NCBI GenBank assembly: GCA_018920365.1
Contig: JAHLMM010000001.1
Span: 4,449 to 68,448 of the forward strand
DNA: 64,000 nucleotides
Direction: 5' to 3'
Origin: Candidatus Aenigmatarchaeota archaeon
Lineage (GTDB): Archaea > Aenigmatarchaeota > Aenigmatarchaeia > CG10238-14
Shown: positions 17,695-44,008 of the stretch, piece after piece
How positions within the stretch are numbered: the first letter of the stretch is position 1
How the letters are laid out: each line of letters starts with the position of its first letter
Notes under the pieces: model-generated
Database searches by the model: none
Told to the model about the DNA's origin: nothing
What the model saw: only the letters and a program-made list of their open reading frames with translations
Program-made: the position numbers and the translations under genes

Positions 17695-18846
17695 ATGAAA
17701 AAATATTGGTTTCTGTTGTTGCTGACCATAATAGGTATAGGTATATCTCAAAACATTTCTCAAGATGAAAATATTACAGAGTATAATGTATCCTTGAATT
17801 TGACAGCCGAAGATTTTATTCAAAATGAAACTTTTACAAATGAAACTTATAATATCACAATTGATAATTCAACAAATACAGAAAACACAACTGAAATAAT
17901 TGAAGAGTTTTATGACTATGGAAATATAACTTTAGAGATAAACAAAACAATCAATCTAGGCGATTTATTTTTCTTTAAAATAAACGGTAGCGCAAAAGCA
18001 AATTTCAGTGTCTCAATATCAAAGGACGGTGTTGACATTTTTGAAATGTATAGTATGACAGATGAAAATGGAATATTTATAGGAAATGCAAATATAACAG
18101 ACCAGGGACTTTACAGTATATCTGCTAATTATTATAATTATACTGTTAAAGATGTTTTTGAAGTTAAGGCTTACGAGTATAATCTAAATATAAGTTTTAT
18201 GCAAAATTATACTAAAAATGTGACATTTGAATTGATATACTTGCCTGATGTAGATATTTCCATAAAATTTGATTCTGTTAATCTTTCAAAAGTATATTTT
18301 GCTAGAACAAACCAGAATGGGTTTTATAGCTTTAATGATTTGTTTGAGCCTAACATGTATAATATATCCATTTTCTATAATAATGAATCAATCTACAACA
18401 ATACATTTTATGTTGAACCCTACACAGCTTCAGAAGATTTATCATATATAGTTTTGGATAATGATATAATTTCTGATGATGTAGCTTTTTCGTTTACCGG
18501 TTTTAATTTTACAATTGATTGTGCAAACCATTCAATAAATGCAAGCAAACATGGAATACTAATAGAAAACACAAGAGCCGTCACTATATTGAATTGTAAT
18601 ATTTTCGGTGGGGAGACTGCTATATTTGTGAAAGATTCTGACCAAATAAAGATTGAAAATGTCAATGCAAATCAAAATAAAAACGGCTTGATAGCAGTAA
18701 AGTCTGACAATATTGAAGTTAGATCAAGTAATTTTATGCGAAACGAGTTTTATGGTATGCTTTTCGTAAGGAGTGAAAATATTAGCGTGGAAAGCACAGA
18801 AACTGAAACAAGAACAAATTTAGATGTTCTAACTAGCTTGAATTAA
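17695..18846 (+). CDS. secreted sequon-rich protein with C-terminal right-handed beta-helix-like repeats
   Basis: Signal peptide 'MKKYWFLLLLTIIGIGISQ', dense N-x-S/T sequons, and a C-terminus 'GILIENTRAVTILNCNIFGGETAIFVKDSDQIKIENVNANQNKNGLIAVKSDNIEVRSSNF' that is NosD/pectin-lyase-like. Confidence 0.6.
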   Translation: MKKYWFLLLLTIIGIGISQNISQDENITEYNVSLNLTAEDFIQNETFTNETYNITIDNSTNTENTTEIIEEFYDYGNITLEINKTINLGDLFFFKINGSAKANFSVSISKDGVDIFEMYSMTDENGIFIGNANITDQGLYSISANYYNYTVKDVFEVKAYEYNLNISFMQNYTKNVTFELIYLPDVDISIKFDSVNLSKVYFARTNQNGFYSFNDLFEPNMYNISIFYNNESIYNNTFYVEPYTASEDLSYIVLDNDIISDDVAFSFTGFNFTIDCANHSINASKHGILIENTRAVTILNCNIFGGETAIFVKDSDQIKIENVNANQNKNGLIAVKSDNIEVRSSNFMRNEFYGMLFVRSENISVESTETETRTNLDVLTSLN

Positions 18847-18876
18847 ATTTATTTTTCAAATACTAACATTATTTTA

Positions 18877-21705
18877 ATGAAAATTGAATGGTTTGTTTTA
18901 ATAGCTATAATATTGCCGTCAGTTTTGGCTATTCAATGTACTATAAGGCAAAACTCATGCAATACTGGTGAGATATGTTTATTTTCTAGATATCAGGCTA
19001 ACAACACTCATGTAGGCAACTGTACAGCATATGGTAATTTGACATGCTGTTCTGATCCTTATCTTGCTAGAGCACAGATAAAAGCTTCATGTAATCTTGG
19101 CGAAAATGGTACTATATCATTATACAACTATACTAATTCTCATGCAGAAATCTATACTCAAGGCACATACAACTATAAAGTTTGCGTGGATTGTCCCTGG
19201 ATATGCACTTTGAGAGCAAGTTGTTTAAGCGATGAATATGCAATAGCGTCAATAAATGCTAGCACAAACGCACACATAGGAGAGCCTGGTTTTTATGCAA
19301 ATCAGGTTTGCTGCAAAAATGAGAATGTTCAACCAACTTATTCAAATCTCGGTGAAAATGCAACAGTAATAGATTATAATAGAGCTGTTAAGCTATACAC
19401 ATTATGGCAGGATAATGGTAATATATCTCATGCAATATTAGAAACAAATGAAACTGGTGTATGGCAGAATAAAAGTATATATGGATCTCCTTTATCAATC
19501 AGAGCTAATTCTGGATGGAGTAATTTCACATGGCAAAATTCTTCTTTTTCTGATATTTTGATAGGTTGGAGGATTTATGCAAACGATACATGCGGAAATT
19601 GGCATGTTACTCCCATCACTACATTCAGAGTCAATTCAATAAATCTCAATCAATGTCAAAATATCACGTCAAGCGGAAGTTATATTCTAACGACTGATGT
19701 GAGTGCTGTTGGTACATGTTTTAATATAACTGCTGTTAATGTTACGTTAAATTGTAATAAAAAGTCAATATCTTATGCTATTTCAACAATCGGTTATGGT
19801 GTTTATATTAAAAGTAATAATGTCACAATAACAAACTGCACAATTATAGAATCTGGATCATCATTAAATGATGATTCTTATGCTATATATGTTCTATCAA
19901 ATTATACAAAGATAATTGATAATAGTATAAGTACTGATGGTGTGTTTGATGGAGCAAGCATTCATGGAATTTATCTATATAATGCTAACAACAACACTAT
20001 AAGTAAAAACAATATATCAGTAGCAGGCGGGCTTTATGGAGGATATGGGATATTTCTAGATTCTAGTTCAAAAAACAATATAACTTATAACAACATAAAC
20101 AGCAGTGATAATTTAGCTATATATGTTTCCGGCAGTACTATGCAACATTTTGATAATTATATAGATACAACAAACACAGAATTTGGAAAAACTATTTATT
20201 ATTATTTTAATCAAAGTGATATAAAAATAGAAAATAAAGATGCGGGAGAAATATTCTTTGCATATTCTAATAAAACAATTGTAAACAATGTTACTCTGGA
20301 CAAAGATGGGATAATACTTTACAAAACAAACAATTCAATAATAAATTCAAGTGTAATAAAAACAGACAAAAATATTTACATAGAATCAGGAAACAATATT
20401 ACATTGATCAACAATATTATAAGAAATTTTTTTAGTAATGTTGTCTATTTTAATGGTTCGAGAATTATTATCTTAGCAAACAATAATATAACTTGCCATA
20501 CATCACTAAACGAAAGATGTATCTATTTTTCATTTTCAAACAATAATACCATCATAAACAACAATATAACAGATTATTATAGTGAGGGCAATGTCATTTT
20601 TTTAAGCAATTCTGTAAACAACACATTAAATAATAATAATATAACTGTATTTGGCTCTGGTTCATACGGAATTTTATTCCAAGGATCAAATAACACATTG
20701 ATAAGCAAAACAAATCTGAATGCTACTGGAGTTTCTTATGGTGTTTATATAAATTGGAAAAGCTTCAACATATCAATAATAAACAGCACATTAAATTCAA
20801 CTTTTAGTGATATTTCATTTAACGGTAATTCTTCTGTTCAAATAATAAATACAACTTTTAACAAATCTTCTGTTAGATGGTTATCACAATCTAACGCATG
20901 GATAAACGTTTCTTACTATGTTGATGTTTATGTAAGAAACAGTACAGGATCTGTTGATTCAGCTCAGGTTAATATGACAAATTATACAAATTCACTCGTG
21001 TTTTCAGGGCAGACAAATAGTAATGGTTATACGACTATTGTCTTATTACCTGAATTCTTTGCTAATGGCAGCTATAGCTATTCCTGTCCTTCGTCTCAAG
21101 CCAATTTGAGTTGTGCTAGTCCTTACAATTTTTCTGCATCTAAAGGAAGTTTATTTAATTCAACAATAGAATATGTAAATCAAAGTAAAACAATTCAAAT
21201 ATATTTTGAAAAAATACTTTCTGTAACACTTTCTAATAGATTAAGCGAAGGTATATTTTTCACAAATTCCGTCGGCTCACAAACAAACACACAAGGAGAT
21301 ATAGATATAACAAGATGGAATAATGGAACTTGGAATTATAATAATACACCGCAACCAGGCAATTTAAAAACTCTCTATTGGGTTTATAACAGCGGTAATA
21401 CTCCACAAGATATTTGTTTAAAGGCAAATGCTGATTTAACTTGCAGCCAAGGTGCATGTGCAACAAATACAATTTCAGTTACAAATATTGCATATACAAA
21501 TTCAACATACAATAATGCTACCCATCCTGTTTATGCTACAACAAATACTCTTAGTTTGAGCTATGTAAAAGTTGCAGAAAACGTTCAGCCGGGCCAATAT
21601 TACTATTTCAGATTTTGGCTTTATGGTCCTATAGGCAAACCTTCTGGAATTTACAACACAACATTTTCGGTAAGGAATGTAGAATCAGGATCTTCTTGCA
21701 ATTAA
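18877..21705 (+). CDS. large secreted adhesin-like protein: Cys-rich triple repeat, long parallel beta-helix, C-terminal 'A-domain'
   Basis: 942 aa with a signal peptide. Three copies of a '..S..N.TN(A/S)H(I/V/A)..Y...(V)CC'-type unit are present. About 450 aa of 20-25-residue beta-helix-like repeats follow ('NNNITV', 'NNTISKNNISV'). The C-terminal ~160 aa is paralogous to the ORFs at 31627 and 33364. Confidence 0.7.
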   Translation: MKIEWFVLIAIILPSVLAIQCTIRQNSCNTGEICLFSRYQANNTHVGNCTAYGNLTCCSDPYLARAQIKASCNLGENGTISLYNYTNSHAEIYTQGTYNYKVCVDCPWICTLRASCLSDEYAIASINASTNAHIGEPGFYANQVCCKNENVQPTYSNLGENATVIDYNRAVKLYTLWQDNGNISHAILETNETGVWQNKSIYGSPLSIRANSGWSNFTWQNSSFSDILIGWRIYANDTCGNWHVTPITTFRVNSINLNQCQNITSSGSYILTTDVSAVGTCFNITAVNVTLNCNKKSISYAISTIGYGVYIKSNNVTITNCTIIESGSSLNDDSYAIYVLSNYTKIIDNSISTDGVFDGASIHGIYLYNANNNTISKNNISVAGGLYGGYGIFLDSSSKNNITYNNINSSDNLAIYVSGSTMQHFDNYIDTTNTEFGKTIYYYFNQSDIKIENKDAGEIFFAYSNKTIVNNVTLDKDGIILYKTNNSIINSSVIKTDKNIYIESGNNITLINNIIRNFFSNVVYFNGSRIIILANNNITCHTSLNERCIYFSFSNNNTIINNNITDYYSEGNVIFLSNSVNNTLNNNNITVFGSGSYGILFQGSNNTLISKTNLNATGVSYGVYINWKSFNISIINSTLNSTFSDISFNGNSSVQIINTTFNKSSVRWLSQSNAWINVSYYVDVYVRNSTGSVDSAQVNMTNYTNSLVFSGQTNSNGYTTIVLLPEFFANGSYSYSCPSSQANLSCASPYNFSASKGSLFNSTIEYVNQSKTIQIYFEKILSVTLSNRLSEGIFFTNSVGSQTNTQGDIDITRWNNGTWNYNNTPQPGNLKTLYWVYNSGNTPQDICLKANADLTCSQGACATNTISVTNIAYTNSTYNNATHPVYATTNTLSLSYVKVAENVQPGQYYYFRFWLYGPIGKPSGIYNTTFSVRNVESGSSCN
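21215..21702 (+). other. C-terminal A-domain of the 942-aa protein (paralogue of the 31627 and 33364 gene products)
   Basis: Shared blocks are 'G(I/V)FFTN', 'WNYNNT/GNYNGT', 'YWV/YYV', paired Cys, 'Y(F/M)R(F/Y)W(L/I)', 'P(S)G(I/V)YNTT(F/Y)', and a Cys within the last 1-3 residues. Confidence 0.7.
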
Positions 21706-22899
21706 TGATATTTGTTGTTCGACCAAAGATTTTATTTCATCATTTCCATATTGCTCCCATATATAAGACAGGTAATATAAATTTCTTAAAAGATAATTTT
21801 CAGAATCGTTTGTCCATGAATTCAATTCTATTAGTCTGTTTCTCAATGATTTGATGAAATCTATTTGTGTCTGAATTTCTTCTTTTGTTGATAAAATTTT
21901 TAAAACGTCAACTGCTTGCAAAAATTTGAAATAAAGATCGCTCTTTTGATCGATTTTTAAATTGGTTTTTGAAGACAAATCAGATTTAACTGAATTCAAC
22001 AAAGATGTTATTTCGTTCAATGTGTTTGTCAGTCTCTTCTTCTCATCATCGATTTCCTTTTTAGCCTCTTGCTTAGATAGCTCAATTATTTTTTTAATTT
22101 CGCCCAAATAATTTTTGTTAACATTTTCTATATTTTTCTTTGTCATCTCCTCTATCAACTTTTCCACATTTTCTTTCTCAATCAACTTTGGTATTTTTAT
22201 GCTAATGCCATCAAGCATCTTAACTATATCAACTGTTAAATCATCCAATTTTTGAATTTTACCTTTCATATCTTCAACATCTTTCATCTTACTTTCCATT
22301 TCAGAAAATATTGTTTCAGATTTTCCAGCAAGCCTGTCAACATATAGTTTTGTATCGTCTATAAGCTGTATTTTTTCACTTAATTTTTTGTACATAGCTA
22401 CAAGATTCTCAATATTTTTTATCTTCTCCAAAATTGAATTTAGCCTTTCATTGTCTTTCTTTATAGAAGCCAAAACGTTTTTCAAAGATTCTGATTCAGC
22501 TTGCAATTTTAAAATATCTGCCTCTTTTTTCTGTAAATCTTTGTAAAACTTTTCAGGTTGAATTTGATTAACAGAATCCAAGACTTTTTCAACTCTTGAT
22601 TCTAGTGAAGTAAAGTTTTTGTCTAATTCTAGAAAGGATGATCTTAGTTCACCTATTTCCTCTGAGATTCTTGCTATCCTTTCATTTATATCATCTTTAA
22701 CATCTTCAAACGCAGAGAACTTGCCTTCTAATTTTTCTATTCTTAATAGCAAACTTAAAGGATTTGTATCTCCTTCTTGGACATTTTGTTTTTCTTGTTT
22801 GACAACTTCTTCTTGAACTTGCTGTTTTGGTATATCTTTAGTAACACCAAACTTGGCTTTTAATGCTTCCTTTTTATCATCTTTTTTAGGCAATATCAT
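21685..22899 (-). CDS. long coiled-coil protein, translationally coupled to the giant ATPase-bearing surface protein
   Basis: 404 aa. It is almost entirely heptad-like and rich in K, E, L and I, with no TM segment or signal peptide. Its ATG overlaps the TGA of the upstream gene (ATGA at 22896-22899). Confidence 0.7.
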   Translation of the reverse strand: MILPKKDDKKEALKAKFGVTKDIPKQQVQEEVVKQEKQNVQEGDTNPLSLLLRIEKLEGKFSAFEDVKDDINERIARISEEIGELRSSFLELDKNFTSLESRVEKVLDSVNQIQPEKFYKDLQKKEADILKLQAESESLKNVLASIKKDNERLNSILEKIKNIENLVAMYKKLSEKIQLIDDTKLYVDRLAGKSETIFSEMESKMKDVEDMKGKIQKLDDLTVDIVKMLDGISIKIPKLIEKENVEKLIEEMTKKNIENVNKNYLGEIKKIIELSKQEAKKEIDDEKKRLTNTLNEITSLLNSVKSDLSSKTNLKIDQKSDLYFKFLQAVDVLKILSTKEEIQTQIDFIKSLRNRLIELNSWTNDSENYLLRNLYYLSYIWEQYGNDEIKSLVEQQISLIARRS

Positions 22900-25800
22900 T
22901 TACTCAACCCTAATTTTTTATTTAGCGATTCGATATATATTTCTGCTACTCTGAACATTCCTTTCTTTAGTTTGTCTTTTGCCAGCTTTAACTCTATTCT
23001 CAAGTCAAATACATCTTTTCCTGTACTGGCTAGCTTCTCTATTTCCTGTTCTAATTTTTCAATTCTAGAATTATATTCTTTATACATTTGCATCTCTTGA
23101 TCTGTTATCTTGTGCGGCATATGCAGTGGCGGTCTGAATGAAATAAACCAAGGCATACCCTTGTTGTATTTTGGATTTTGTATCATGCCTATGCCAACTT
23201 CTTCCTTTGCAACTCTCCTAGCATATTCCAATCCATACTTCTTTTCAATTCTTTGCAAATCATTCAAGCTCTTCGTGTGCATTTGTATTTCTGTCAAAAC
23301 ATTACCTTTTATTGCTTCCTTGAAATCTGACAAAACTTGAGATGCCATTATTAAGCCGATACCCCACTTTCTAAATTCTCTGCATGCCCTTTCCAAAGCA
23401 ACATAACCGCCTTTGCCTCCATACTTTTCAAGCAATCTGTGAACTTCGTCAAAAACTATTATTAATCTTGGTTGCGTAGACTCTTCCCATGATTGGCTGA
23501 AAATGCTGTCAATAATATTTGTAACAGCCTCGTCATATTCACCTGGCTTCAATTTATTCAAAACAAACACTGTTATTTCACCAGGATTCATGTATTTCTT
23601 GAAATCTATTTTTGCTTTTGGATCTGTCATTTCATAGATATTTCCAGGATAGGATTTTGTATTGTCTATTGTTAACCCATGATTTTTATAATATTTCAAA
23701 ACATTCTCATCTTTGCATGGTTTGACAAAACCGGTCCATTGTGCTGTTGGATCAAAGACAACAACAGGTATTTTCTTTTCAAGCAACTCTTCTGCAAATA
23801 TGCTAGCTGAAACTGATTTTCCTGCACCTGTTGAACCAGCAACTATAATATGTGTTGTTATATCATTTGATGAAAATGTTGCTTTGATGTTTGTTTCAGC
23901 TACTTTACCTAAATGCAAATCACCTTGTGGCAACAATCCGAAATTAACTGGAAATATGTATCTGAGTTTTGATTTTTTCCATTGTATGTATTTTCTAACA
24001 GCAACAAAAGCTATTATTATTGAAAGTAAAGACACTATACCTATTATTATATATCTTAATGTTGCTGCTGTGATTATAGATGAAGATATGTCAAAAGTAT
24101 CTATTGCTGAAAGTTTACCATCAGAATAAGTTGCATTTACAACCACATAATACTTTCCAGAAGTTATATTTTCTGGTAAATGAATGTATTTCAATATTTG
24201 GTGTGGTGTTTTTATGCTTACCTGCTCAGTTTCAGTATAAATAATATCATCTTGCTTGAATCTCTGTATTGCATATGTTATCTCTGCTTCTATTTCTTTC
24301 TTTTGTGTTAAACTATAAAAACCGACTTCAAATGCCAATGTTTCATTTGGCTTGAGTGTTTTTGTTATTGTCTTTAAGCTTAATTGCAATTCAGATGTAT
24401 CTTTTGTAACAAATATTGTAATAGGTAATCTTTCACTCCTACCGCTTGAAACAACTATTTCGCCTGTGTATGTACCTACTTGAATATTTTCAGGAACATT
24501 TAGATCAATAACTACTTCTTTTTCTTTTGACGATTCAACGAGAACTGATTTTTGTCTTAGAGATAGCAGGTTTGATGCAGGACCATTGATAAGTATATTT
24601 GCTTGAATGGATTGAGACATTAGATTTGATATCCATAACGAATATGATTTTTTGTTTCCAGGATTAACATAATCTTGAGTTAAATTTGTCTTGACACTGA
24701 ATACACCTGTACAATCCTGTGGGCATGTGAATGGGTTTTCTGTTGTGTCACATATACCGTTGCCACAACTCTCTTTATAGCCACTGCTACCAGCACCACC
24801 AGCAGCAGAAGATACTGGTTGCTGCGTCATCCCAGTACCACCTGTTGAGCATTCTCCACAATCAGCCACACAATTTACACATGATTCTCCTGTTCCACAT
24901 ATAGAGTTTCCACAAATTTCTGCTTCAAAAAGATAATAAGCTGATGTACTGTTCTGTAAAGTAAATGCTTTGTAAGATGTAGAGTTTACTGTCGTGTTCA
25001 CCTCTTGCCATCCAGAACTGCATTGACCTGTCCAGTTTGAACATTTGTAAATGACTAACGCAGGTGCATAATCTATTTCTCCTATTTTTTTAGAATAATC
25101 AAATGAAACAGTTACATTTGAATATGCAAAGCTCGATGATATGTAAATTCCGGCGATTTCATGTCTCCATGGCACAGGAGGATTCAGAATTATCAACGGT
25201 ATTACAGATATGTTTAATGGGTTTGTTATATTTGAAACAGAACCAAACTGCTGTTTTGATGTTTCAGTTGAATTAAGATCATTAAAAATTATTTCATGCA
25301 TCTGGCTAGCGTCATCTTGTATCTCTGCATAGAGATCATAATTTCTTTGATGCAATGTCAAATTCTGCTGACCTGCTGGGTTTGTAAAGTTGTGTATAAT
25401 CTCATTCCTTCCTGGTCTATAAAACAAATATCTCACTGGATATGAAGTGTCGGCGTATAATTGAATTGTATCATAAACTTCAAACCAAGTTGAGTTTGAT
25501 GATGTATAGTTTGATGTATCATTGGCATACAAAATTATATCATAATCGCCAACAAAATTCATTTGGGTAAAATTTGAATACCAAACTGTTTGTTTTAAAT
25601 CACCTGTTGAGTTAGTCAAATAAATTGTCTGGTTAGTTCCATTTGGATGATAAACATCTATCCAAGCATGGCTTACACCATACCAATCTGTTATGTTTGC
25701 TGTGATTGATGTATTTCCTCCTTTCAATGTTGAATTTATCTTAATGCTGTTTATTTTAGGAGGTGTTGTATCTTTTTCTATAATAACTATATCTTTTGAA

Positions 25801-28800
25801 TCTTCTTTTTGAGAAGCATTATACTTTCTATAAGCATCTAAATTTTGATCTGTTATATTACACATTATAGTATATAATCCTTCAGGAACTGTTTGATTTG
25901 ATGATATATTCCACAAATAGTTTACTGTACCTGATGGGAAGATTGTATTCATGCTAGCAAGCTTGACAAAATTTCCGCCTTCGTATTTATACAATATATC
26001 CACACTATATGGATCTAACTTCACTAGAGTGTTATTTGCATCTGAAACTTCACAGGAAATATTTATTATCCTATTTGTCTCAGTTCTGTTAAAAGTTCCG
26101 TTAGAAGGTTGCAACAATTTTACTTGCGACCAACCATAAATGTTAATGTTTCTTGTTTGCGTATTTTGATTGTACAATTCGCCTGTTATTCTATTTGATA
26201 ATATTAATATGCCTGGGTTGCACTGTACATTCCATGTAGTATTAGTAGCTATGGTTGAATTGTAAATTGGTGGGTATGTTTGCGATGTACAATTAAAGAT
26301 CCATGTTGATGTGTATTGATGTTCTGGCACACCACAAGAATCCAAAATGTAAGAAGATAAATTCATTTCTTCTCCTTTGTGATATATTTCTGTAGTTAAT
26401 GGCGATAAAATTGATGAGTTTATGGTATCTTTTATAAACAAATTAATCAAATGCTGTTTTTGATCGAGATAATAATATGTGTTTGAAGATGATGGGAGAG
26501 AAACATTAAATTCATACAAACCTAATTGATACGAACATGATGGTTGAAACGAGATTTGACAAACGCCTGTAGAGTTTGTTGTGTTAGTACCTATCTGTGT
26601 TTGATTTATAATAAATGAACATTGCTGCCCTGATAACCTTATCTGCTGACCATATTCATCAAATATTCTTGCGCTTATTATCCTATTTTGATTTCTTGTT
26701 ATGTTTGATTGATAAATGCTTTGAGTGAAATTTACATTCATTTTTCCATACAAATATATTGTCTGATTTGAAGACAAGCTATCATTATAAATATTGTCAT
26801 TATAAACACCTACTCTCCACCATCTTAATCCTGGTTCATAACTTGAGTTAGGCGTGAAAAGATAATTGCAATAACCAGACGAGTTTGTTGATGTTTGATA
26901 GCCTAAATCCCATGATGTTTGATTTTTGCTTATCCAAAACATGCAAACTGCACTAGTTGCTGGTGAGTTGTCGATGCTATCATTTATATACGCACTCAAT
27001 AAAATAGACTGGGATCTATTTATATGAGATTCATTCCCTTGAACAATTATAGGTGCAGTTAAATGTTTTGTTACATTCGGACCATAATAAACATTGTAAT
27101 AGCTATAATCATGATATACAGTTTCATTTTCAAAATCGCTCAGCAAAAATGTCAAAATGTTATATCCTACCCATGTAGAATTTGTTTCAATTTCAAAATA
27201 TAGCTCTTCGCCATATATAGTGTTGGATGTCGTATTCTTTTCGCTAAAACATTGCCATGTGAGTTGTGATGTATTTATATCGTTTATGTCAAATGTTTTA
27301 GTCAAATTTATGCATGGTATTACAGAAATATTATTCCCTTCAGCATCACTAACATTAACATATACAGTAAAATTCCTTCCCCAAAAATTGTCTGAAGATA
27401 TGTTTACATTATTTATCACAGGTGGATTGTTTGCTGATCCAGATACTTCATAAATTGTGAATGTTCTGTTTGTGTCAGGCTGTTTCCAGGCGAAAAAATC
27501 TACTCTACCATCATTGTTTGTATCCTGTTTGCAAACAAAAAATGTATAGTTTTCTATACTAATTTCACTATAAGTTGGGTTTGAATTACAATTTGTTCTA
27601 GTTTGTGCTGGTGTTATATCATACAAAGTTCCATTGTTAAACCAATCAACTCTTAATTTAGAATTACCTGTTATGTAGTTTTCATCCAAAGATGTGCTCA
27701 AGATTATATTGGTGAATATTTGCGTTGTAGTATTCCAAACAGTTATATTTTTTTTCCAAAATCCATATTGGGCTACACCTTCTGTTTCGTTATAAAGTAT
27801 AGGTATGGATGAAGACATTGTATTGTCCCATATGAAATCATATGTCAGGTTTTGGTTTGAAAATATTGTTTTTGGTTTTGATGAAATATCACATACCTTG
27901 CTGCCTTGTAGTGTTATGACATTGAATCTAGTGCCGTTGAAATCGCATACTGTGGCAGAATTTGAAACTGCTATATATTTTATTTGAAAGTCGTGAGATG
28001 GATTTACTAAGTAATTTATCTTTTTTATTTGATTGCCAACACTTTCATTTGCTGCTATACTGTCATTTCTAGACCATTCTGAAGCTAAAGAAACATAAAA
28101 TATGTTTGTTATGTTATATGAATAAGATATGTTGATTTCATTTATTTTTAATATGCCATCAAAATCTGAACTAAAATTTAATGGTAATTGACAATACCCG
28201 AAGCTGTCAGGTGAGCATGAATTTATAAAATCTTGTACTTCTGAGTTAGCTGTTATGTTTGCTGATGATCTAAATTTACCTCCATATGACCATTCAATAT
28301 CGTTATCGCTGCTTATATCCAAAGTTACATTTGTTGGAAAATATTCAAAATTCAGTATATGTAAAGTATAAACAGCTGGTATTTGAGTTCCTGCAGCAAC
28401 TTCATTTCCAGGATCTGATGTAAGATTACCTATACCGACACCTTTAACATCATTTTCTGTTTTATATTTCCATACCAAATCACCGTCTTTGCTCACAACA
28501 TAGACATAATCATCGTAACTTCCTATTACAATTTCATTTCCATTATATTCTGTGGTCACTTCACCTATCTTCACATTGTCAATAGCTGCACCAGGAGAAT
28601 ATGACCATAATATGTTTAACTCATTATCTATCATATACAAAGTCCCATTATCTGTAACAACTGCTATCTCATCATAACCGCTATCATCTATATCCAAAAC
28701 ATCTATGTCGTTTATTAGATAGCCAATGTCTTTGCTGTTTATTAGATTTCCTGATGAATCTAAAATAAAGATGGTTGAACCACTTGATGCTGCTATTTCT

Positions 28801-29528
28801 TTTCCTGATATTGCATTCAGATTGCCTATACCCACACCTCTGAAAGGAAGAGATGAAGAATAATTCCATATTTCTGATAAAGAATTTGATAAAAGATATA
28901 CTTTATTGTCACCTGCAGCAACAGCTATCTCCTCATATTCATCACTAGTAACATCAGCCACCTCTATATCATATATAATATTATTCATCGATTTGTTTTG
29001 AATTTGGCTGCCAGTAGAGTTGAAGAGAAATATTTTTGAGCCAGATGACGCGACTATTTCTTTGCCCTTTTGTGAGCTCAAATTCCCAAAATTGACTGAA
29101 GAAACATCTGTATTTATACTATAATTCCATATTTGAAACCCTGAAGCATTTAACAGTCTTATATTATGTGATGATCCAGCAGTACCAATCAATATTTCAT
29201 CCCACGGTATATCTTCATTTATATTTCCAACTTTTAGATCTAGAACTTGCTCTTTTATAGTTGCGGCTATAGGCTTCATAGAACCTTCTATCCTAATTGA
29301 AGAGTTTATTATTGTAGAATTTTTTGGTAAATTTACCCAAAGTATCTTGGTTTCACTTCCATTAAAGTATATTTCTTTTGTATTTGAACTGTCATTAAAC
29401 TCTACAGTTGAAAAATTCATTACTGCGTCGTCCAAGTCAAATATAAAACTCTGCTGATTAACTGAAGTTACAGTAGAAATAAATATCACAATCAGTATTA
29501 ACAATAGCCAAAAACTACCATTCTTCAT
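22896..29528 (-). CDS. giant surface protein (2210 aa): signal peptide, FG-GAP-like propeller, long beta-rich sequon-rich ectodomain, Cys-rich modules, single TM, cytoplasmic HerA/FtsK-type P-loop ATPase
   Basis: One uninterrupted ORF. N-terminal 'FWLLLILIVIFISTVTS'. Repeated 'D(V/I)..D...EI(A/V)' propeller-like units. Modules 'CGTGESCVNCVADCGEC' and 'CGNGICDTTENPFTCPQDC'. TM 'YIIIGIVSLLSIIIAFVAV' followed by 'RKYIQWKKSK'. Walker A 'HIIVAGSTGAGKS', Walker B 'LIIVFDEVH' and 'GLIMASQ'. Confidence 0.8.
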   Translation of the reverse strand: MKNGSFWLLLILIVIFISTVTSVNQQSFIFDLDDAVMNFSTVEFNDSSNTKEIYFNGSETKILWVNLPKNSTIINSSIRIEGSMKPIAATIKEQVLDLKVGNINEDIPWDEILIGTAGSSHNIRLLNASGFQIWNYSINTDVSSVNFGNLSSQKGKEIVASSGSKIFLFNSTGSQIQNKSMNNIIYDIEVADVTSDEYEEIAVAAGDNKVYLLSNSLSEIWNYSSSLPFRGVGIGNLNAISGKEIAASSGSTIFILDSSGNLINSKDIGYLINDIDVLDIDDSGYDEIAVVTDNGTLYMIDNELNILWSYSPGAAIDNVKIGEVTTEYNGNEIVIGSYDDYVYVVSKDGDLVWKYKTENDVKGVGIGNLTSDPGNEVAAGTQIPAVYTLHILNFEYFPTNVTLDISSDNDIEWSYGGKFRSSANITANSEVQDFINSCSPDSFGYCQLPLNFSSDFDGILKINEINISYSYNITNIFYVSLASEWSRNDSIAANESVGNQIKKINYLVNPSHDFQIKYIAVSNSATVCDFNGTRFNVITLQGSKVCDISSKPKTIFSNQNLTYDFIWDNTMSSSIPILYNETEGVAQYGFWKKNITVWNTTTQIFTNIILSTSLDENYITGNSKLRVDWFNNGTLYDITPAQTRTNCNSNPTYSEISIENYTFFVCKQDTNNDGRVDFFAWKQPDTNRTFTIYEVSGSANNPPVINNVNISSDNFWGRNFTVYVNVSDAEGNNISVIPCINLTKTFDINDINTSQLTWQCFSEKNTTSNTIYGEELYFEIETNSTWVGYNILTFLLSDFENETVYHDYSYYNVYYGPNVTKHLTAPIIVQGNESHINRSQSILLSAYINDSIDNSPATSAVCMFWISKNQTSWDLGYQTSTNSSGYCNYLFTPNSSYEPGLRWWRVGVYNDNIYNDSLSSNQTIYLYGKMNVNFTQSIYQSNITRNQNRIISARIFDEYGQQIRLSGQQCSFIINQTQIGTNTTNSTGVCQISFQPSCSYQLGLYEFNVSLPSSSNTYYYLDQKQHLINLFIKDTINSSILSPLTTEIYHKGEEMNLSSYILDSCGVPEHQYTSTWIFNCTSQTYPPIYNSTIATNTTWNVQCNPGILILSNRITGELYNQNTQTRNINIYGWSQVKLLQPSNGTFNRTETNRIINISCEVSDANNTLVKLDPYSVDILYKYEGGNFVKLASMNTIFPSGTVNYLWNISSNQTVPEGLYTIMCNITDQNLDAYRKYNASQKEDSKDIVIIEKDTTPPKINSIKINSTLKGGNTSITANITDWYGVSHAWIDVYHPNGTNQTIYLTNSTGDLKQTVWYSNFTQMNFVGDYDIILYANDTSNYTSSNSTWFEVYDTIQLYADTSYPVRYLFYRPGRNEIIHNFTNPAGQQNLTLHQRNYDLYAEIQDDASQMHEIIFNDLNSTETSKQQFGSVSNITNPLNISVIPLIILNPPVPWRHEIAGIYISSSFAYSNVTVSFDYSKKIGEIDYAPALVIYKCSNWTGQCSSGWQEVNTTVNSTSYKAFTLQNSTSAYYLFEAEICGNSICGTGESCVNCVADCGECSTGGTGMTQQPVSSAAGGAGSSGYKESCGNGICDTTENPFTCPQDCTGVFSVKTNLTQDYVNPGNKKSYSLWISNLMSQSIQANILINGPASNLLSLRQKSVLVESSKEKEVVIDLNVPENIQVGTYTGEIVVSSGRSERLPITIFVTKDTSELQLSLKTITKTLKPNETLAFEVGFYSLTQKKEIEAEITYAIQRFKQDDIIYTETEQVSIKTPHQILKYIHLPENITSGKYYVVVNATYSDGKLSAIDTFDISSSIITAATLRYIIIGIVSLLSIIIAFVAVRKYIQWKKSKLRYIFPVNFGLLPQGDLHLGKVAETNIKATFSSNDITTHIIVAGSTGAGKSVSASIFAEELLEKKIPVVVFDPTAQWTGFVKPCKDENVLKYYKNHGLTIDNTKSYPGNIYEMTDPKAKIDFKKYMNPGEITVFVLNKLKPGEYDEAVTNIIDSIFSQSWEESTQPRLIIVFDEVHRLLEKYGGKGGYVALERACREFRKWGIGLIMASQVLSDFKEAIKGNVLTEIQMHTKSLNDLQRIEKKYGLEYARRVAKEEVGIGMIQNPKYNKGMPWFISFRPPLHMPHKITDQEMQMYKEYNSRIEKLEQEIEKLASTGKDVFDLRIELKLAKDKLKKGMFRVAEIYIESLNKKLGLSK
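22899..23996 (-). other. cytoplasmic tail: HerA/FtsK/VirB4-superfamily (DUF87-like) ATPase domain plus terminal coiled coil
   Basis: Walker A is at 23814..23837 (GSTGAGKS) and Walker B at 23439..23465 (LIIVFDEVH). The 'ASQ' motif occupies the position of the HerA 'ATQ' motif. I found no N-x-S/T sequon in this ~366-aa tail, whereas the ectodomain is full of them. Confidence 0.7.
23997..24053 (-). other. single predicted transmembrane helix of the giant protein
   Basis: 19 hydrophobic residues 'YIIIGIVSLLSIIIAFVAV' are followed by the basic 'RKYIQWKKSK'. By the positive-inside rule the C-terminal tail is cytoplasmic. Confidence 0.7.
24710..24925 (-). other. two Cys-rich 'CG.G.C' modules flanking a Gly/Ser/Ala linker (ectodomain stalk region)
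   Basis: 'CGNSICGTGESCVNCVADCGECS-TGGTGMTQQPVSSAAGGAGSSGY-KESCGNGICDTTENPFTCPQDC'. Confidence 0.6.
28330..29260 (-). other. FG-GAP/PQQ-like beta-propeller region of the giant protein (approximate bounds)
   Basis: Recurrent ~50-60-aa units: 'IWNYS..', 'GNL..GKEI(A/V)ASSGS.IF(L/I)..S.G', 'VADVTSDEYEEIAVAA', 'VLDIDDSGYDEIAVVT', 'IGEVTTEYNGNEIVIGS' and 'IGNLTSDPGNEVAAG'. Confidence 0.5.
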
Positions 29529-37490: not shown

Positions 37491-38009
37491 ATGAAGATAT
37501 CGATAACAGGTACACCTGGTGTTGGAAAGACTACTGTTGCTAAAAAATTGGCTAAAAAAATTGGGTTTAGATACATTAATGTCAATGAGTTATCTTCAAG
37601 ATTTGTAGAAAGTTTTGACAAAAAATTTGAAAGCAATGTTATTGATGTAAAGAAAATGTCAAAACATATAGATTCTATAAAAGATGATGTTGTTTTGGAT
37701 GGGCATTTGTCGCATTATTTCAAAGTTGATTTAATAATAATTTTAAGATTAGATCCAAGTATGCTTGAAAAAAGGCTTAGAAAAAGATATAAAAATAAAA
37801 TTAAGATAAAGGAAAATGTTGATGCTGAAATTTTAGGAGTAATAACTTCAGATTGTGCTGGAAAAAAAGCTTGTGAGATAAATTGTACTGGGAAAAAAGT
37901 TGAAGAAATAGTTGAAGAAATTATAAAAATCATTAGAAAGGATAAATGTGAATTTGGTAAAATAGATTGGCTGAAAAAATATGAAAAAAAATTAATCCAA
38001 ATCTCCTAA
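37491..38009 (+). CDS. putative adenylate kinase / Fap7 (AK6)-type NTPase
   Basis: 'MKISITGTPGVGKTTVAKKLAKKIGFRYINVNEL' and 'LDGHLSH', in a 172-aa protein. Confidence 0.7.
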   Translation: MKISITGTPGVGKTTVAKKLAKKIGFRYINVNELSSRFVESFDKKFESNVIDVKKMSKHIDSIKDDVVLDGHLSHYFKVDLIIILRLDPSMLEKRLRKRYKNKIKIKENVDAEILGVITSDCAGKKACEINCTGKKVEEIVEEIIKIIRKDKCEFGKIDWLKKYEKKLIQIS

Positions 38010-40751
38010 GCCGATCATAATCCAATTATATTCATCTGTTTTATTTTTCATGCAGAAATATAATTTATCGCTTTCGCCGCTGTTTGATTTAAAGAACCAA
38101 ATTGTACCTCTTAGAGTTTGATTGCATTCAGGTAATGTTTGAATAGGATCTATTTTTATTCCTCCTTTAACTTCTAATTCAGTTGATGGATTGCTTGTGC
38201 CTATTCCTATTCTTTTTGAGCTAGCATTAACAAACAAACTGTCGCTAACATTCAAAGATAAACCGTTTGATGAAGATGTGTTTATTTCCAAACTTGAAGT
38301 AGGATTAGTTGTGCCTATGCCAACATTACCAGTGCTTGATATTCTTACTCTTTCCCTGATATTGTTGCTTCCACCAAGATTATATGCTGTAGATCCTGTA
38401 AGAAATATAATATCCATTGGAACCAAATCATTAGAAACACTTCCACTAACCCATGCACTTATACCAGCATTTTGTTCCCAAGAGTTTCCATCATAACCTC
38501 TAAAGTAAAAGCCGCCTATTTGATCTCCTAATTGGACTGTTAGAGGATTAGAAATTGTGCCTCTTGCTCTTTCAATCACAAATTGTGGAGAATGATAAGG
38601 ATGTGAAGAAGAGTATACTTCGTTATTATACAATAACCAACCGTTTTCTTTTTGAAATCTCATATCGCCACTGATTGGCATCTCTTCTAAATCAGATACG
38701 ACATGAAGTTTGCTTGTTGGCGATGCTGTGCCTATGCCGACGTTGCTATTGTGTATTCTCATCCTCTCACTGCCGCCTGATGTAAAGCTTATCACATTAT
38801 CTGTTGCGCCAATGCTGATGGATTCAGAGTTTGCTCCTGTTAGCGTGCCTGATGCTACTTGCAAATTGTTGACAATGCTTGTTGCTGATGGGTCGAGATA
38901 ATATTGACTGCTTTGTCTGTCATAATATGTTGAAGCATTGACATTGCCTGCGACTTCTAATTCAGCTGATGGGTTGGTTAAGCCTATGCCTACTTTGCCT
39001 GAAGAATCTACAACAAAAGGTGTATTATCATTATATTCATCTTCTATTAACAAACTTTTACCAAGACCTAAATTTGTTATTTTCACAACACTTCCATTTG
39101 ATGTATTGAAATTCTGTTCTATTTTTAAAATACTCGAACTGTCGTTACATGTACCTCCCATTTCTTTGCAATTAGAAGAAAAGAAAACTAGATCACTCAG
39201 TTTCACCATACCGTTTGATGTTATTGTATCATTCCTTGTTATATTTAAGAAATTGGCTGTGTCATTTGCTATACCAAACCCACCATATCTTGATGAAATT
39301 ATTTGAATTATATTGTTTTTATACTCTATCAAATTGTTTGAATTGCCGGATATGTCTATCATTTTTCCATTACTTGAAAAACCAAATGGATACATATAGA
39401 TGGCGGTACCAGCCGTAAGTCCTGCAAAAGAAGGATCGCCAAATCTTATACCAATTCCGTTTTGACTTATTCTAAAAAACTTTATGCCTTCTCCGTCCGA
39501 AATATCTCCGTGAAAGTATATATGAGAGCCACCATTTACAATATTCTCAAATTTTATGCCTATTTTGTTTGTATTGTGACTATATGTACCTATAGTTATA
39601 CCATCTTTGATTGAACCCGGAATTTCTATATAACTGTTAATGCTTGCAGAACCTATTCCAATTCCTCCGGTTGTTGAATTGACAAAAAAAACATCACTTA
39701 CATTCAAAGCTACTCCACTTGGATTGTTAATTTCAACTTTAGCTAATGGTGTTTCAGTTCCAATTCCAACATTGCCTTCATTCTGATAAATCACTGAATT
39801 ATTCAAACTGCTTGTACCATTCCATAAAGGAATATAGCCGATTGATCCACTGCCAGCAACATCATTTGGATTCATGTCTACTTCAACACATTGTGGTTGA
39901 TTTGTTGTCAAATTCATGACAACTTGTCCTTGAGGACAATTGCCTATACCGCTTGATGACAAACTGGCTCTTGCTTGATCAGCTGTTGATGCGCCTGTAC
40001 CTCCAAATGATATTGGAAGTGTGCCTGATGTTATGTTGGATGCTGATAAGCCAGTTGAATTGATGAAATAGATGTTGCTGTCTAATAATGAGTTGCTTAT
40101 TGTGCCTGATGTGATTTGAGAAGTGTCTATGTTAACAGTTAGATTTGATGCTGACAATATTCTCCCTTTTGAATCAACTGTTAATTGAATGGAGTGTGAT
40201 GGTGATCCATAAACTCCTTGAGAAACGCCTGTTGTTGATAGTTGTAGATTAGAAAATAAGCCTGTTACTTCGCCTGATGCTGATTGATCTTCATTGATGA
40301 ATCTTTGATCATAGATAGAACCTGATTCATATGATGAGTTTAAGCCTAAAGTTATACTGCCGCTTGATCCACCGCCTGTCAAGCCAGTGCCTGCCAAAAC
40401 AGATGTTATGTTGCTTATGCCAGGAGTTGCATTTAATTGAATGCATGTCAAGCTATCGCCAATTGCTTGGACGGCAAAACCTTGCTGGCATGGAGATGGA
40501 TAATTTGACAGCCTAGACCAAGGAACTGAACCTTGAACTAAAGTGCCTGTGAAATTGACATCACCTAAAACCGTTAATCTTTGAATTGGGTATGTTCCTA
40601 TACCTAAATTGTCAGGAAAAACATAATTGCCGTTGCCTACAAGTTGGCCAAATGTTCCGGCTCTTATTTGACTAGCATTATGACTAACAGTTTGTGCTTT
40701 GACAAAAGTAATTAACATAAAAATAAATATAATCAAAACCAGCTTTTTCAT
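37992..40751 (-). CDS. secreted 919-aa tail-fiber-like repeat protein
   Basis: Signal peptide 'MKKLVLIIFIFMLITFVKAQ'. At least six copies of '(G/S)N(V/L)GIGT..P...L.V' are present. Cys-bracketed loops 'CQQGFAVQAIGDSLTC' and 'CPQGQVVMNLTTNQPQC'. C-terminal 'CNQTLRGTIWFF..KLYFC..NW'. Confidence 0.7.
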   Translation of the reverse strand: MKKLVLIIFIFMLITFVKAQTVSHNASQIRAGTFGQLVGNGNYVFPDNLGIGTYPIQRLTVLGDVNFTGTLVQGSVPWSRLSNYPSPCQQGFAVQAIGDSLTCIQLNATPGISNITSVLAGTGLTGGGSSGSITLGLNSSYESGSIYDQRFINEDQSASGEVTGLFSNLQLSTTGVSQGVYGSPSHSIQLTVDSKGRILSASNLTVNIDTSQITSGTISNSLLDSNIYFINSTGLSASNITSGTLPISFGGTGASTADQARASLSSSGIGNCPQGQVVMNLTTNQPQCVEVDMNPNDVAGSGSIGYIPLWNGTSSLNNSVIYQNEGNVGIGTETPLAKVEINNPSGVALNVSDVFFVNSTTGGIGIGSASINSYIEIPGSIKDGITIGTYSHNTNKIGIKFENIVNGGSHIYFHGDISDGEGIKFFRISQNGIGIRFGDPSFAGLTAGTAIYMYPFGFSSNGKMIDISGNSNNLIEYKNNIIQIISSRYGGFGIANDTANFLNITRNDTITSNGMVKLSDLVFFSSNCKEMGGTCNDSSSILKIEQNFNTSNGSVVKITNLGLGKSLLIEDEYNDNTPFVVDSSGKVGIGLTNPSAELEVAGNVNASTYYDRQSSQYYLDPSATSIVNNLQVASGTLTGANSESISIGATDNVISFTSGGSERMRIHNSNVGIGTASPTSKLHVVSDLEEMPISGDMRFQKENGWLLYNNEVYSSSHPYHSPQFVIERARGTISNPLTVQLGDQIGGFYFRGYDGNSWEQNAGISAWVSGSVSNDLVPMDIIFLTGSTAYNLGGSNNIRERVRISSTGNVGIGTTNPTSSLEINTSSSNGLSLNVSDSLFVNASSKRIGIGTSNPSTELEVKGGIKIDPIQTLPECNQTLRGTIWFFKSNSGESDKLYFCMKNKTDEYNWIMIGLGDLD

Positions 40752-41836: not shown

Positions 41837-42274
41837 ATGAAAGGGATATCTGCTTTTGTAAGCATTGTTCTAATAATAGCTTTAACTATAAGTGTTGGTG
41901 CTATATTTTCTAGATGGTTCACAAGCTATATCAGAACAACATCCCAAGATATTGAAGATCAAAGCAAAACAAAAATAACATGCAGTAATGCTGGTATTGC
42001 TTTAAGCAGAGTCACATACAATCAGACTTCTGGCTATATTTATGGATATATTAGAAACACTGATCTTGTCTCTCTTGGTGACATAGATGTTGAAATATTT
42101 TTGAAAAATGCTACAAGGATTTTTGCTGACATTAATTTATCATTGACTCCAGGAGAGCAGAATAGTTTTTCTTATAACCTAAATACAGCAAATTATGATT
42201 ATATCAGAGTGAAGACAAACTGTTCAAATGTTTATGATTATTTAATGTCTGAACAGATTTTGACTGTTAATTAA
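41837..42274 (+). CDS. archaeal type IV pilin
   Basis: 'MKG|ISAFVSIVLIIALTISVGAIF'. It lies 2 nt after the preceding pilin gene. Confidence 0.75.
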   Translation: MKGISAFVSIVLIIALTISVGAIFSRWFTSYIRTTSQDIEDQSKTKITCSNAGIALSRVTYNQTSGYIYGYIRNTDLVSLGDIDVEIFLKNATRIFADINLSLTPGEQNSFSYNLNTANYDYIRVKTNCSNVYDYLMSEQILTVN

Positions 42275-43104
42275 GTTAAAAGCAAAAATATTACAACGCC
42301 AACAATCATCATAAACAAACTATGTTTTATACCGCCTACAATCTGGCCTTCACTTAATTTTCCTATTGACAAGCCTGCAAACAATCCTTGGATTAATATA
42401 AGATTTCTAAACATCGCTTTATATTCTGCTTTCAAAACTTCAATATTTTCTTCTTTGCTTTCTGCCATAAGTTGTTTCATTGACATTTGCGTTAAGCTTG
42501 GAACAAGAAATTTTTGCAATCCTATTATAACTGCTAGAAATACAAAAAATATAATATAACCTGAAACTATTTGAGAATTTAAATAAAGTTTTCTCTCTTC
42601 CCTTAACCTTTCTATTTCAAGTGTAGTCTTGCTTATGCTTTCAAATACATCTGTTAAATTGCCACCATGTTCATGACTTTCAATTATTGTTGATCCTATT
42701 CTGGCTATTAATTTTGATTTAGTTGATTTTGTAAAACTTAAAAAAGCTTTAGAAAATGGTATGTCCCACTCTAGCTGTGCATTTAATTTCTTTACATATG
42801 GTGTGAGCTCTCCATAATCGTTTTTTGAAACAGAATTTATTGCTTGTGGCAATGTCATCCCAGATCTCACTGCCTCAACTATATCACCCATAAACTGAGG
42901 GAAATTGTCTTCAAGTTTTCTTATTCTTGAAACTTGATAATATTTTAATATTGCTATTGGTAAAGCAACTGCGGCTATTGAAAATCCTATTACAGTGAAA
43001 AATATGTTTTTGTACTCTTTGAAAAAAATATAAGTGAACATAAACATTAACAGAGAAAATACAACAACCGATCCAAGCAATATCCAAAGTATTTTATCTT
43101 TCAT
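42271..43104 (-). CDS. type II secretion system F-family membrane protein (TadC/ArlJ-like, C-terminal half-gene)
   Basis: The cytoplasmic helical domain 'FPQFMGDIVEAVRSGMTLPQAI..' is flanked by TM segments. It overlaps the upstream half-gene by 4 nt. Confidence 0.75.
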   Translation of the reverse strand: MKDKILWILLGSVVVFSLLMFMFTYIFFKEYKNIFFTVIGFSIAAVALPIAILKYYQVSRIRKLEDNFPQFMGDIVEAVRSGMTLPQAINSVSKNDYGELTPYVKKLNAQLEWDIPFSKAFLSFTKSTKSKLIARIGSTIIESHEHGGNLTDVFESISKTTLEIERLREERKLYLNSQIVSGYIIFFVFLAVIIGLQKFLVPSLTQMSMKQLMAESKEENIEVLKAEYKAMFRNLILIQGLFAGLSIGKLSEGQIVGGIKHSLFMMIVGVVIFLLLT

Positions 43105-43973: not shown

Positions 43974-44008
43974 TAATTTTAATTTGATGTTTGTAAGTAA
44001 AATGTTTT

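Follow-up and report, generated by a model that had tools for sequence, protein, structure and literature searches.

The window analysed here is a stretch of 64,000 nucleotides (nt) of an Aenigmatarchaeota genome (contig JAHLMM010000001.1 of assembly GCA_018920365.1, positions 4,449 to 68,448). It carries on its reverse strand, at 22896..29528, a single reading frame of 2210 codons without an internal stop. The product was shown to be a compact member, of 2210 amino acids (aa), of the SPEARE family of archaeal surface proteins, in this case from Aenigmatarchaeota. An earlier reading of the sequence alone (the original prediction) had described a giant surface protein with a HerA/FtsK-type ATPase behind a single membrane anchor and stated that no described system had this architecture. 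The latter statement was wrong, as the architecture is that of the SPEARE proteins (Hamm 2019; Reva 2023). The gene is a new member of a described family and does not represent a new architecture.

SPEARE proteins were described as very long, mostly extracytoplasmic proteins with a C-terminal transmembrane (TM) segment and a conserved cytoplasmic domain. Similar sequences were found in Woesearchaeota, Aenigmarchaeota, Micrarchaeota and Altiarchaeales, and proteomics revealed that a SPEARE protein is made in culture (Hamm 2019, PMC6642349). A later study described a signal peptide, PQQ-like propellers, ~75 immunoglobulin (Ig)-like domains, a TM segment, a cytosolic 'VirB4/TraG-like' ATPase and a coiled coil, reported a second ATPase gene downstream, and disputed the domains of the original 2019 SPEARE definition (Reva 2023, PMC10266531). 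The published set spans 655-9409 aa (PMC6642349; PMC10266531). The tail of the window protein is 53% identical to AQV86_02330 of SG9, which was listed as a SPEARE protein by Hamm 2019 (PMC6642349). It also aligns over 593 aa with the C-terminal end of an 8880-aa Ca. Nanohalovita protein (locus L001), with 41% identity, and is 36-45% identical to both the giant and the short copies in two further loci (L002, L003). Scans of the window protein with Pfam and NCBIfam detected none of the domains of the original 2019 definition, save a weak ResIII P-loop match (E 0.006).

The cytoplasmic ATPase

The tail is a HerA-like ATPase that is under strong constraint and predicted to be catalytically intact. 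It carries a Walker A motif (GSTGAGKS, 23814..23837), a Walker B motif (LIIVFDEVH, 23439..23465) and the segment REFRKWGIGLIMASQ (23337..23381) with its GLIMASQ portion at 23337..23357, all at the positions given in the original prediction. Pfam models of DUF87 (E 7.6e-12) and HerA_C (E 8.7e-07) match the tail, and in sequence searches against the PDB REFRKWGIGLIMASQ aligned with REGRKFGVGL..SQ of HerA. The motif RE-x-RK-x-G-x-GL...SQ and the Walker motifs were found to be invariant in the 45 family sequences in which they were checked. The putative arginine-finger residue would lie within this conserved Arg/sensor motif, following the assignment of Iyer et al. 2004.

Residues 1821-2210 were modelled with AlphaFold2 from an alignment with 44 homologues, with a mean predicted local distance difference test score (pLDDT) of 91.5 and a predicted template modelling score (pTM) of 0.88. 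The model shows a long TM helix that is joined by a short linker to a RecA-like core, and helices at the C-terminus. Comparison with the PDB by Foldseek gave HerA of Sulfolobus (4d2i) as best match (E 1.5e-13), followed by HerA-NurA, HerAs of defence systems, the coupling protein TcpA, the packaging ATPase B204 of STIV2 and FtsK. The matches to HerA, TcpA, B204 and FtsK all had a probability of 1.00. The original prediction had expected a HerA/VirB4/DUF87 fold in the tail, and the Pfam match, the model and Foldseek together identify it as HerA-like. The conserved ATPase starts ~25 residues past the TM helix, and the spacing between TM helix and P-loop is ~48 residues, with only a short hairpin there in the model, which implies that the HAS barrel of HerA is absent. 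Across phyla the ATPase is ~50-60% identical. The block of C-terminal helices (H353-367, H371-384 and the end of H322-347 in the model, corresponding to residues ~2142-2204) was modelled with a pLDDT of 86-96, and close orthologues share 87-98% identity over the C-terminal helical segment.

On these comparisons and those with family models, we assign the tail to a distinct clade of the FtsK-HerA superfamily that is nearest to HerA; it is not HerA proper, a VirB4, a coupling protein or a Ced component. The best NCBIfam match was CedD (E 5.4e-15) with 55 bits versus a cutoff of 600, and the matches to coupling-protein, FtsK and Ced models were all partial and far below the family cutoffs. Among the PADLOC defence models mad8 matched best (E 1.8e-17, 61.9 bits), with several models of defence-system HerAs next. 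Two identities were rejected. VirB4 was discarded as its domain PF03135 was found neither in the window protein nor in the short paralogues described below. A type IV coupling protein was discarded as TrwB_AAD_bind matched the P-loop only, with 15.2 bits versus a cutoff of 20.5, and the model shows no all-alpha insertion.

Membrane topology and ectodomain

By three independent sequence criteria the window protein is predicted to be a type I membrane protein with its N-terminus outside and its C-terminus inside the cell: a signal peptide, the positive-inside rule, and an enrichment (2.8-fold) of sequons (N-x-S/T) that is restricted to the outside. Hydropathy analysis revealed two hydrophobic regions (three overlapping 19-mer peaks), namely residues 5-23 and residues 1814-1844, the latter peaking at 1826-1844. 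Signal-peptide-like N-termini are present in nearly all complete open reading frames (ORFs) of the family. Lysine and arginine residues, counted in 15 residues on each side of the TM helix, number 1 before and 6 after it in the window protein, and on average 1.2 outside and 5.9 inside in 16 family members. The window ectodomain contains 90 sequons versus 36 expected from its composition, and the tail 0 versus 1.6 expected, a zero that is not significant alone. When pooled over the same 16 members, the counts are 1922 versus 686 expected for the ectodomain and 8 versus 23.8 for the tail. Furthermore, the ectodomain holds 30 cysteines versus 2 in the tail. The TM helix itself is purely hydrophobic and the least conserved segment among orthologues (19-43% identity).

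These data agree with most of what was originally predicted for the layout of the protein: one unbroken 2210-aa ORF, a signal-peptide-like start, a propeller following it, an ectodomain crowded with sequons, one 19-residue hydrophobic helix at 23997..24053, and a cytoplasmic ATPase behind this single-pass anchor and a large adhesin-like ectodomain, the last being supported by Pfam, the model, flanking charge and sequons. The use of the sequon-free tail as support for an outside/inside split stood in part; the zero was confirmed and the pooled counts support the split, but the zero carries little weight by itself.

In the N-terminal part of the ectodomain, Pfam PF25292 (Beta-prop_CGLA) matched in two stretches, best at residues 246-355 (E 1.7e-12). 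Residues 401-1500 contain 4-9 sequons per 100 aa, except for 3 in residues 601-700, and the Pfam scan of this middle region gave sub-threshold matches only (Transthyretin, Invasin_D3). Its portion beyond ~residue 1200 shows homology to stalk regions in proteins of up to 7878 aa. The second of two cysteine modules that follow carries the family-wide motif CGxxxCxxxENxxxCxxDC, for which no Pfam family was matched; the modules were modelled by AlphaFold2 with low confidence. This motif was also seen before two Ig-like domains in short and giant family members of several phyla. The Ig-like pair of the window protein has a pLDDT >90 over most of residues ~1605-1815, and Foldseek matched it to WxLIP and RbmA (E 3e-12 to 1e-10), to complement MG domains and to Ig/FnIII-like proteins. 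Of the 'two CARDB-like Ig domains' in the original prediction, the two Ig-like sandwiches are present in the model, but no specific CARDB assignment was obtained. The Ig-like pair, the TM helix and the ATPase form the conserved core of the family, and are also present in short paralogues.

Elsewhere in the window, an S-layer-like protein (PF05124; 60904..63021, reverse strand) adjoins two family-2 glycosyltransferases (57041..59577, reverse strand). This neighbourhood fits a glycosylated envelope and a sequon-rich ectodomain.

Relatives, orthologues and selection

Searches with the tail and TM helix returned hundreds of DPANN proteins with 47-88% identity, from Aenigmarchaeota, Nanohaloarchaeota, Woesearchaeota and Nanoarchaeia. 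The organism had been called 'DPANN-like', and its closest relatives are indeed metagenome-assembled genomes (MAGs) of Aenigmatarchaeota. At least 583 relatives were counted in the GTDB species genomes, and a search of representatives gave 368 clusters of 50% identity at E <= 1e-30. Most of the top 150 clusters are 1200-7878 aa long with the ATPase at or near the C-terminus. The ectodomain-TM-ATPase arrangement, for which other archaeal genomes were to be searched, is thus not confined to the window, and the fusion is the usual form in the family; Ig-like domains, TM helix and ATPase are continuous in hundreds of proteins.

Analysis at the locus level covered the best 80 loci with 10 kb of flank each, ORFs running past the flank being counted as >3700 aa. 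Complete orthologues of 2184-2222 aa are present in seven other genomes, Aenigmatarchaeota where named, while ~twenty loci have ORFs of 2900-3100 aa and about a dozen have ORFs >3700 aa. Family ORFs as a whole range from 385 to >7800 aa. The shortest is from Aenigmarchaeota LH_S7 (L064, 385 aa) and consists of TM helix and ATPase without any ectodomain. Proteins of ~1200-1700 aa such as P0221, P0226 and P0227 carry the ATPase centrally and are extended at the C-terminus by a further 350-700 residues. Members >3700 aa were also seen outside DPANN, in Hydrothermarchaeota (L039, from Ca. Hydrothermarchaeum profundi on a 1.9-Mb contig, L070 and L073); contigs labelled Methanosarcinales, Heimdallarchaeota and Halobacteria also gave matches, which may reflect misbinning.

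Orthologues share 68-97% identity in the ATPase and 26-82% in the ectodomain. The ratio of nonsynonymous to synonymous substitution rates (dN/dS) was estimated at ~0.03 for the ATPase and at 0.09-0.23 for the ectodomain; these values are rough, as dS is near saturation and saturated for several comparisons. In every region of the gene dN/dS is well below 1.

Short paralogues of 550-730 aa come after the giants in several loci. In three neighbourhoods (Ca. Nanohalovita CP107255, an ENA scaffold and a Woesearchaeota MAG) a protein of 628-664 aa, made up of two Ig domains, a TM helix and the ATPase, is encoded directly after a giant gene, the giants being 8880, 8354 and 9407 aa long. These giants end in a Cys module, two Ig domains, a TM helix, the same ATPase and helices, and share 36-45% identity with the window protein over its last 650 residues. 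No second ATPase copy was detected in the window by tblastn. Pairs of a giant and a short gene were observed in L001, L002, L003, L052, L054, L059, L072 and L080, and two large copies in L060 and L074. Within such tandems the two ATPase domains usually resemble each other more closely (65-92% identity) than they resemble those of any other locus (59-77%), exceptions being L074, L077 and L080. This within-locus likeness points to repeated duplication or to concerted evolution, which would be expected of two proteins that share one ring.

Neighbouring genes

The stop codon of the SPEARE gene overlaps the start codon of a downstream gene for a 404-aa cytoplasmic coiled-coil protein by 4 nt (ATGA), and the two genes are predicted to be translationally coupled. 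In 67 of the 76 loci with enough flank, the ATPase gene is followed downstream by a homologue of this coiled-coil gene, as a rule within 0.2-1.5 kb. The coiled-coil protein has a conserved core at residues ~50-235 and no TM segment. No specific relative was identified: profile searches against the PDB returned generic coiled coils (MCP, sigma-1, SNAP-25), and Pfam and NCBIfam gave sub-threshold matches to coiled-coil families. No mention of this partner was found in the published SPEARE descriptions (Hamm 2019; Reva 2023), and literature searches for a DPANN module of HerA plus a coiled coil gave nothing relevant. Coiled-coil proteins also occur in DPANN pilus loci (Hamm 2023). An identification of the partner with the CCP of these type IV pilus loci was rejected, as the CCP loci differ.

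Upstream, at a distance of 38 nt, lies a co-directional gene for a 663-aa protein with a signal peptide, a NEW3/CARDB-like domain (Pfam NPCBM_assoc, E 2.9e-07), a helical region and a C-terminal TM segment, the hydrophobic segments being at residues 1 and 619. Besides the copy at the window's own locus (L004), homologues were found in eight other loci, seven of which belong to the ~2200-aa clade. The 663-aa protein is a clade-specific neighbour and not family-wide. No other co-conserved neighbour was found in 85 loci: no polytopic channel protein, pilin, NurA or nuclease. NurA, Mre11 and Rad50 genes were not found beside the window gene, which is surrounded by genes for surface proteins, the coiled-coil protein, eIF2B and RFC. 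A related Aenigmatarchaeota MAG shares the synteny of the window, with the SPEARE gene among housekeeping genes. The features of the gene and of its two immediate neighbours are collected in Table 1.

Table 1 Features of the SPEARE-family gene and adjoining genes in the window
Feature	Residues	Position in window	Strand	Basis
SPEARE-family gene, 2210 aa: ectodomain, one TM helix, HerA-like ATPase		22896..29528	-	ORF, Pfam, homologue searches
Signal-peptide-like N-terminus	1-23	29460..29528	-	Hydrophobic peak at residues 5-23, score 2.46
Beta-propeller region	~100-400	28329..29231	-	Pfam PF25292
Middle ectodomain, sequon-dense	~401-1520	24969..28328	-	Sequon counts; sub-threshold Pfam matches
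Two Cys modules around a Gly/Ser linker	~1521-1600	24729..24968	-	Sequence; family consensus
Two tandem Ig-like beta-sandwich domains	~1601-1823	24060..24728	-	AlphaFold2, Foldseek
Single TM helix, followed by RKYIQWKKSKLR	1824-1844	23997..24059	-	Hydropathy, flanking charge
HerA-like P-loop ATPase	1845-2150	23079..23996	-	Pfam, PDB sequence matches, AlphaFold2, Foldseek
C-terminal helical segment	2151-2210	22899..23078	-	AlphaFold2 helices
Downstream cytoplasmic coiled-coil protein, 404 aa		21685..22899	-	Translation; homologue survey
Upstream co-directional type I membrane protein, 663 aa		29567..31558	-	Translation, Pfam, hydropathy

Several other surface-related genes are present in the window. 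Two genes for beta-helix (NosD-like) proteins of 383 and 942 aa (17695..21705, forward strand) converge on the SPEARE operon; only the 942-aa protein has an N-terminal hydrophobic segment, and its gene runs 21 nt into the end of the coiled-coil gene (21685..21705). In the closest Aenigmatarchaeota loci, homologues of the NosD-like proteins are encoded at the corresponding position. A type IV filament-like locus with a T2SSE ATPase and two T2SSF/TadC-like genes (42271..46057, reverse strand) lies ~13 kb from the SPEARE gene. Near it, an unannotated 919-aa protein (37992..40751, reverse strand) has an N-terminal hydrophobic segment and no Pfam match.

Proposed role and alternative explanations

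We infer a role in polymer translocation that is coupled to host contact. The best explanation for the whole of the data, to which we give an even chance, is a SPEARE-type HerA-like ring that sits at a cell contact and, with its coiled-coil partner, drives the movement of a polymer with ATP. The tails would form a ring just beneath the membrane, as other FtsK-HerA ATPases do. The ectodomains would bind the surface of another cell and place the ring at the cell-cell contact, where ring and coiled-coil partner would spend ATP on moving a polymer. The cargo would most likely be DNA, since the nearest structural relatives are translocases of double-stranded DNA; unfolded protein is a less likely alternative. 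The cargo would probably pass through an intercellular bridge or a separate conduit. A channel formed by the protein's own TM helices is disfavoured because there is only one TM helix per subunit, which is purely hydrophobic and the least conserved segment; this helix would act as an anchor. Cytoplasmic bridges of up to 11 nm across have been observed by cryo-electron tomography in a nanohaloarchaeon-host pair (PMC11001535). The six-armed hexamer and the translocation of DNA or other cargo that were originally proposed are putative, and come close to hypotheses already in print.

Several points weigh against this explanation. Oligomerisation, ATP hydrolysis, cargo and host binding are all putative. 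In the 85 loci the genes beside it include no conserved pilin, nuclease or polytopic membrane protein that could form a channel, and a ring bearing six arms of ~1800 aa may be difficult to accommodate sterically. The window locus has a single ATPase gene, and in other lineages a giant is accompanied by a short paralogue. Likeness to DNA translocases does not prove that DNA is the cargo; FtsK-like EssC/EccC ATPases export proteins. Moreover, the family also occurs in Hydrothermarchaeota (on the 1.9-Mb contig), which are not known episymbionts, so that the 'host interface' may be one of general cell-cell or surface adhesion.

A bolder form of the proposal can be put forward only tentatively. The HerA-like TM-ATPase and the coiled-coil gene may constitute a widespread and undescribed module, mainly of DPANN, with ectodomains ranging from none to >8000 aa, that would act as an FtsK-like pump at intercellular bridges and pull host DNA or other polymers into the symbiont without a type IV channel. 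If so, the compact single-gene form of 2210 aa would be the most tractable one for structural and biochemical work.

Of the alternatives, a role without transport survives best, although we consider it unlikely. The tethered ring and its partner would gather the adhesin into rosettes, tie it to a scaffold in the cytoplasm, or spend ATP on remodelling or releasing contacts, and no polymer would cross the membrane. This agrees with a TM helix that is only an anchor and with the lack of a conserved channel partner, and also with the partner itself, a long coiled coil with only Rad50/SMC-, arcadin- and SlaB-like coiled-coil similarity. The near invariance of the C-terminal helical segment in close orthologues likewise suggests a protein-protein interface. 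However, all characterised close structural relatives found by Foldseek are polymer translocases, and an ATPase so extremely conserved between phyla is what one would expect of a core enzymatic pump, although this is no proof of one.

The published 'straw' model holds that the ATPase is of VirB4/TraG type and that the giant protein is itself the channel of a type IV secretion system, through which effectors are injected into the host (Reva 2023, PMC10266531). For the window protein we regard this model as improbable, and as weaker than the ATP-driven ring at a cell contact. An N-terminal TM anchor followed by an ATPase is the layout of coupling proteins, the TcpA coupling protein appears at rank 17 in the Foldseek list, and there are weak, P-loop-only matches to TrwB_AAD_bind, AAA_10 and TraC. 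However, no PF03135 domain was detected in the window protein at E <= 0.1, and the PF03135 claimed for the short paralogues P0092 (BNXNv_0297) and P0108 (SVXNc_0299) was not reproduced with current Pfam at E <= 1; the N-terminal halves of both consist of a signal peptide and two Ig-like domains. VirB4 is absent from the Foldseek top 50, in which HerA is first, and the VirB4/TraC and TraD models score far below their cutoffs (TraC 21.7 bits versus 567). No VirB6/CedA-like channel or VirB2-like pilin is conserved nearby in the 85 loci, the coiled-coil gene being the only co-conserved one, and a single TM helix per subunit with 19-43% identity is unlike a channel lining.

It is very unlikely that the gene encodes a membrane-tethered anti-virus module akin to the HerA defence systems (Sir2-HerA, DUF4297-HerA and mad8 of MADS). 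The PADLOC ranking given above is as such a module would have it, and defence-system HerAs fill much of the Foldseek top 20. However, PADLOC and Pfam revealed no Sir2, nuclease, methylase or other MADS component adjacent to the gene. PADLOC on the flanking products gave coiled-coil-type matches only for the coiled-coil protein and none for the 663-aa protein; Pfam found no effector domain in the wider neighbours, and the partner is without an enzymatic domain. The gene furthermore lies amid housekeeping genes with conserved synteny, and its large, sequon-rich and fast-evolving ectodomain has no counterpart in HerA defence systems.

An assembly or annotation artefact, in which a surface-protein gene was misjoined to a separate ATPase gene, can be dismissed: the join is real, and the chimera or missed frameshift that the original prediction wished to see excluded is rejected, given same-length orthologues in seven independent assemblies, a 2063-aa relative in an eighth (L083), Ig-TM-ATPase continuity in hundreds of proteins, an identical protein on two contigs of a public collection, and purifying selection throughout the gene, including across the junction.

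Significance

SPEARE-type proteins are the leading candidates for the means by which DPANN archaea attach to their hosts and draw material from them. SPEARE proteins of 5000-9400 aa are very hard to study. The compact group of single-ATPase orthologues of ~2200 aa, conserved in the closest relatives among Aenigmatarchaeota MAGs, is a useful form in this respect. The window adds nothing categorically new, and the functional reading originally proposed is a reasonable one. The assignment of the motor has been improved, as it is HerA-like and the VirB4 markers tested are absent, and the conserved coiled-coil partner is a point added to the published SPEARE descriptions. The compact form, the HerA-like motor and the partner sharpen what is to be tested in cultivated nanohaloarchaeal systems.

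Comparison with known systems

Membrane-anchored ring-type P-loop motors are known from TrwB/VirD4, TcpA, FtsK/SpoIIIE and CedB/CedD. In these proteins, as in the window protein, the TM anchor is N-terminal to a motor that faces the cytoplasm. The window protein differs from them by its large extracellular domain, and the genes for their channel or pilus partners are absent from its locus. HerA of Sulfolobus solfataricus (4d2i), the best structural match of the core, shares Walker A, Walker B and the RE-x-RK...SQ motif with the window ATPase. Unlike HerA, the latter has no HAS barrel and no NurA partner, and is membrane-tethered and fused to an ectodomain; the HerA equivalog models of NCBIfam score far below their cutoffs on the tail.

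The closest known systems are the nanohaloarchaeal SPEARE giants BNXNv_0298 (8880 aa), SVXNc_0300 (9409 aa) and NAR1_1133 (5998 aa). Their parts follow one another as in the window protein, viz. signal peptide, propeller, a long and presumably adhesin-like stalk, two Ig-like domains, TM helix, cytosolic ATPase and C-terminal helices. The tail and membrane-proximal region are 36-45% identical end to end, and the downstream coiled-coil gene is homologous. In contrast to these giants, the window protein is far shorter and lacks an adjoining short ATPase paralogue, its gene is preceded by the clade-specific 663-aa membrane protein gene, and its genome is a low-GC (guanine plus cytosine) one of a non-halophile.

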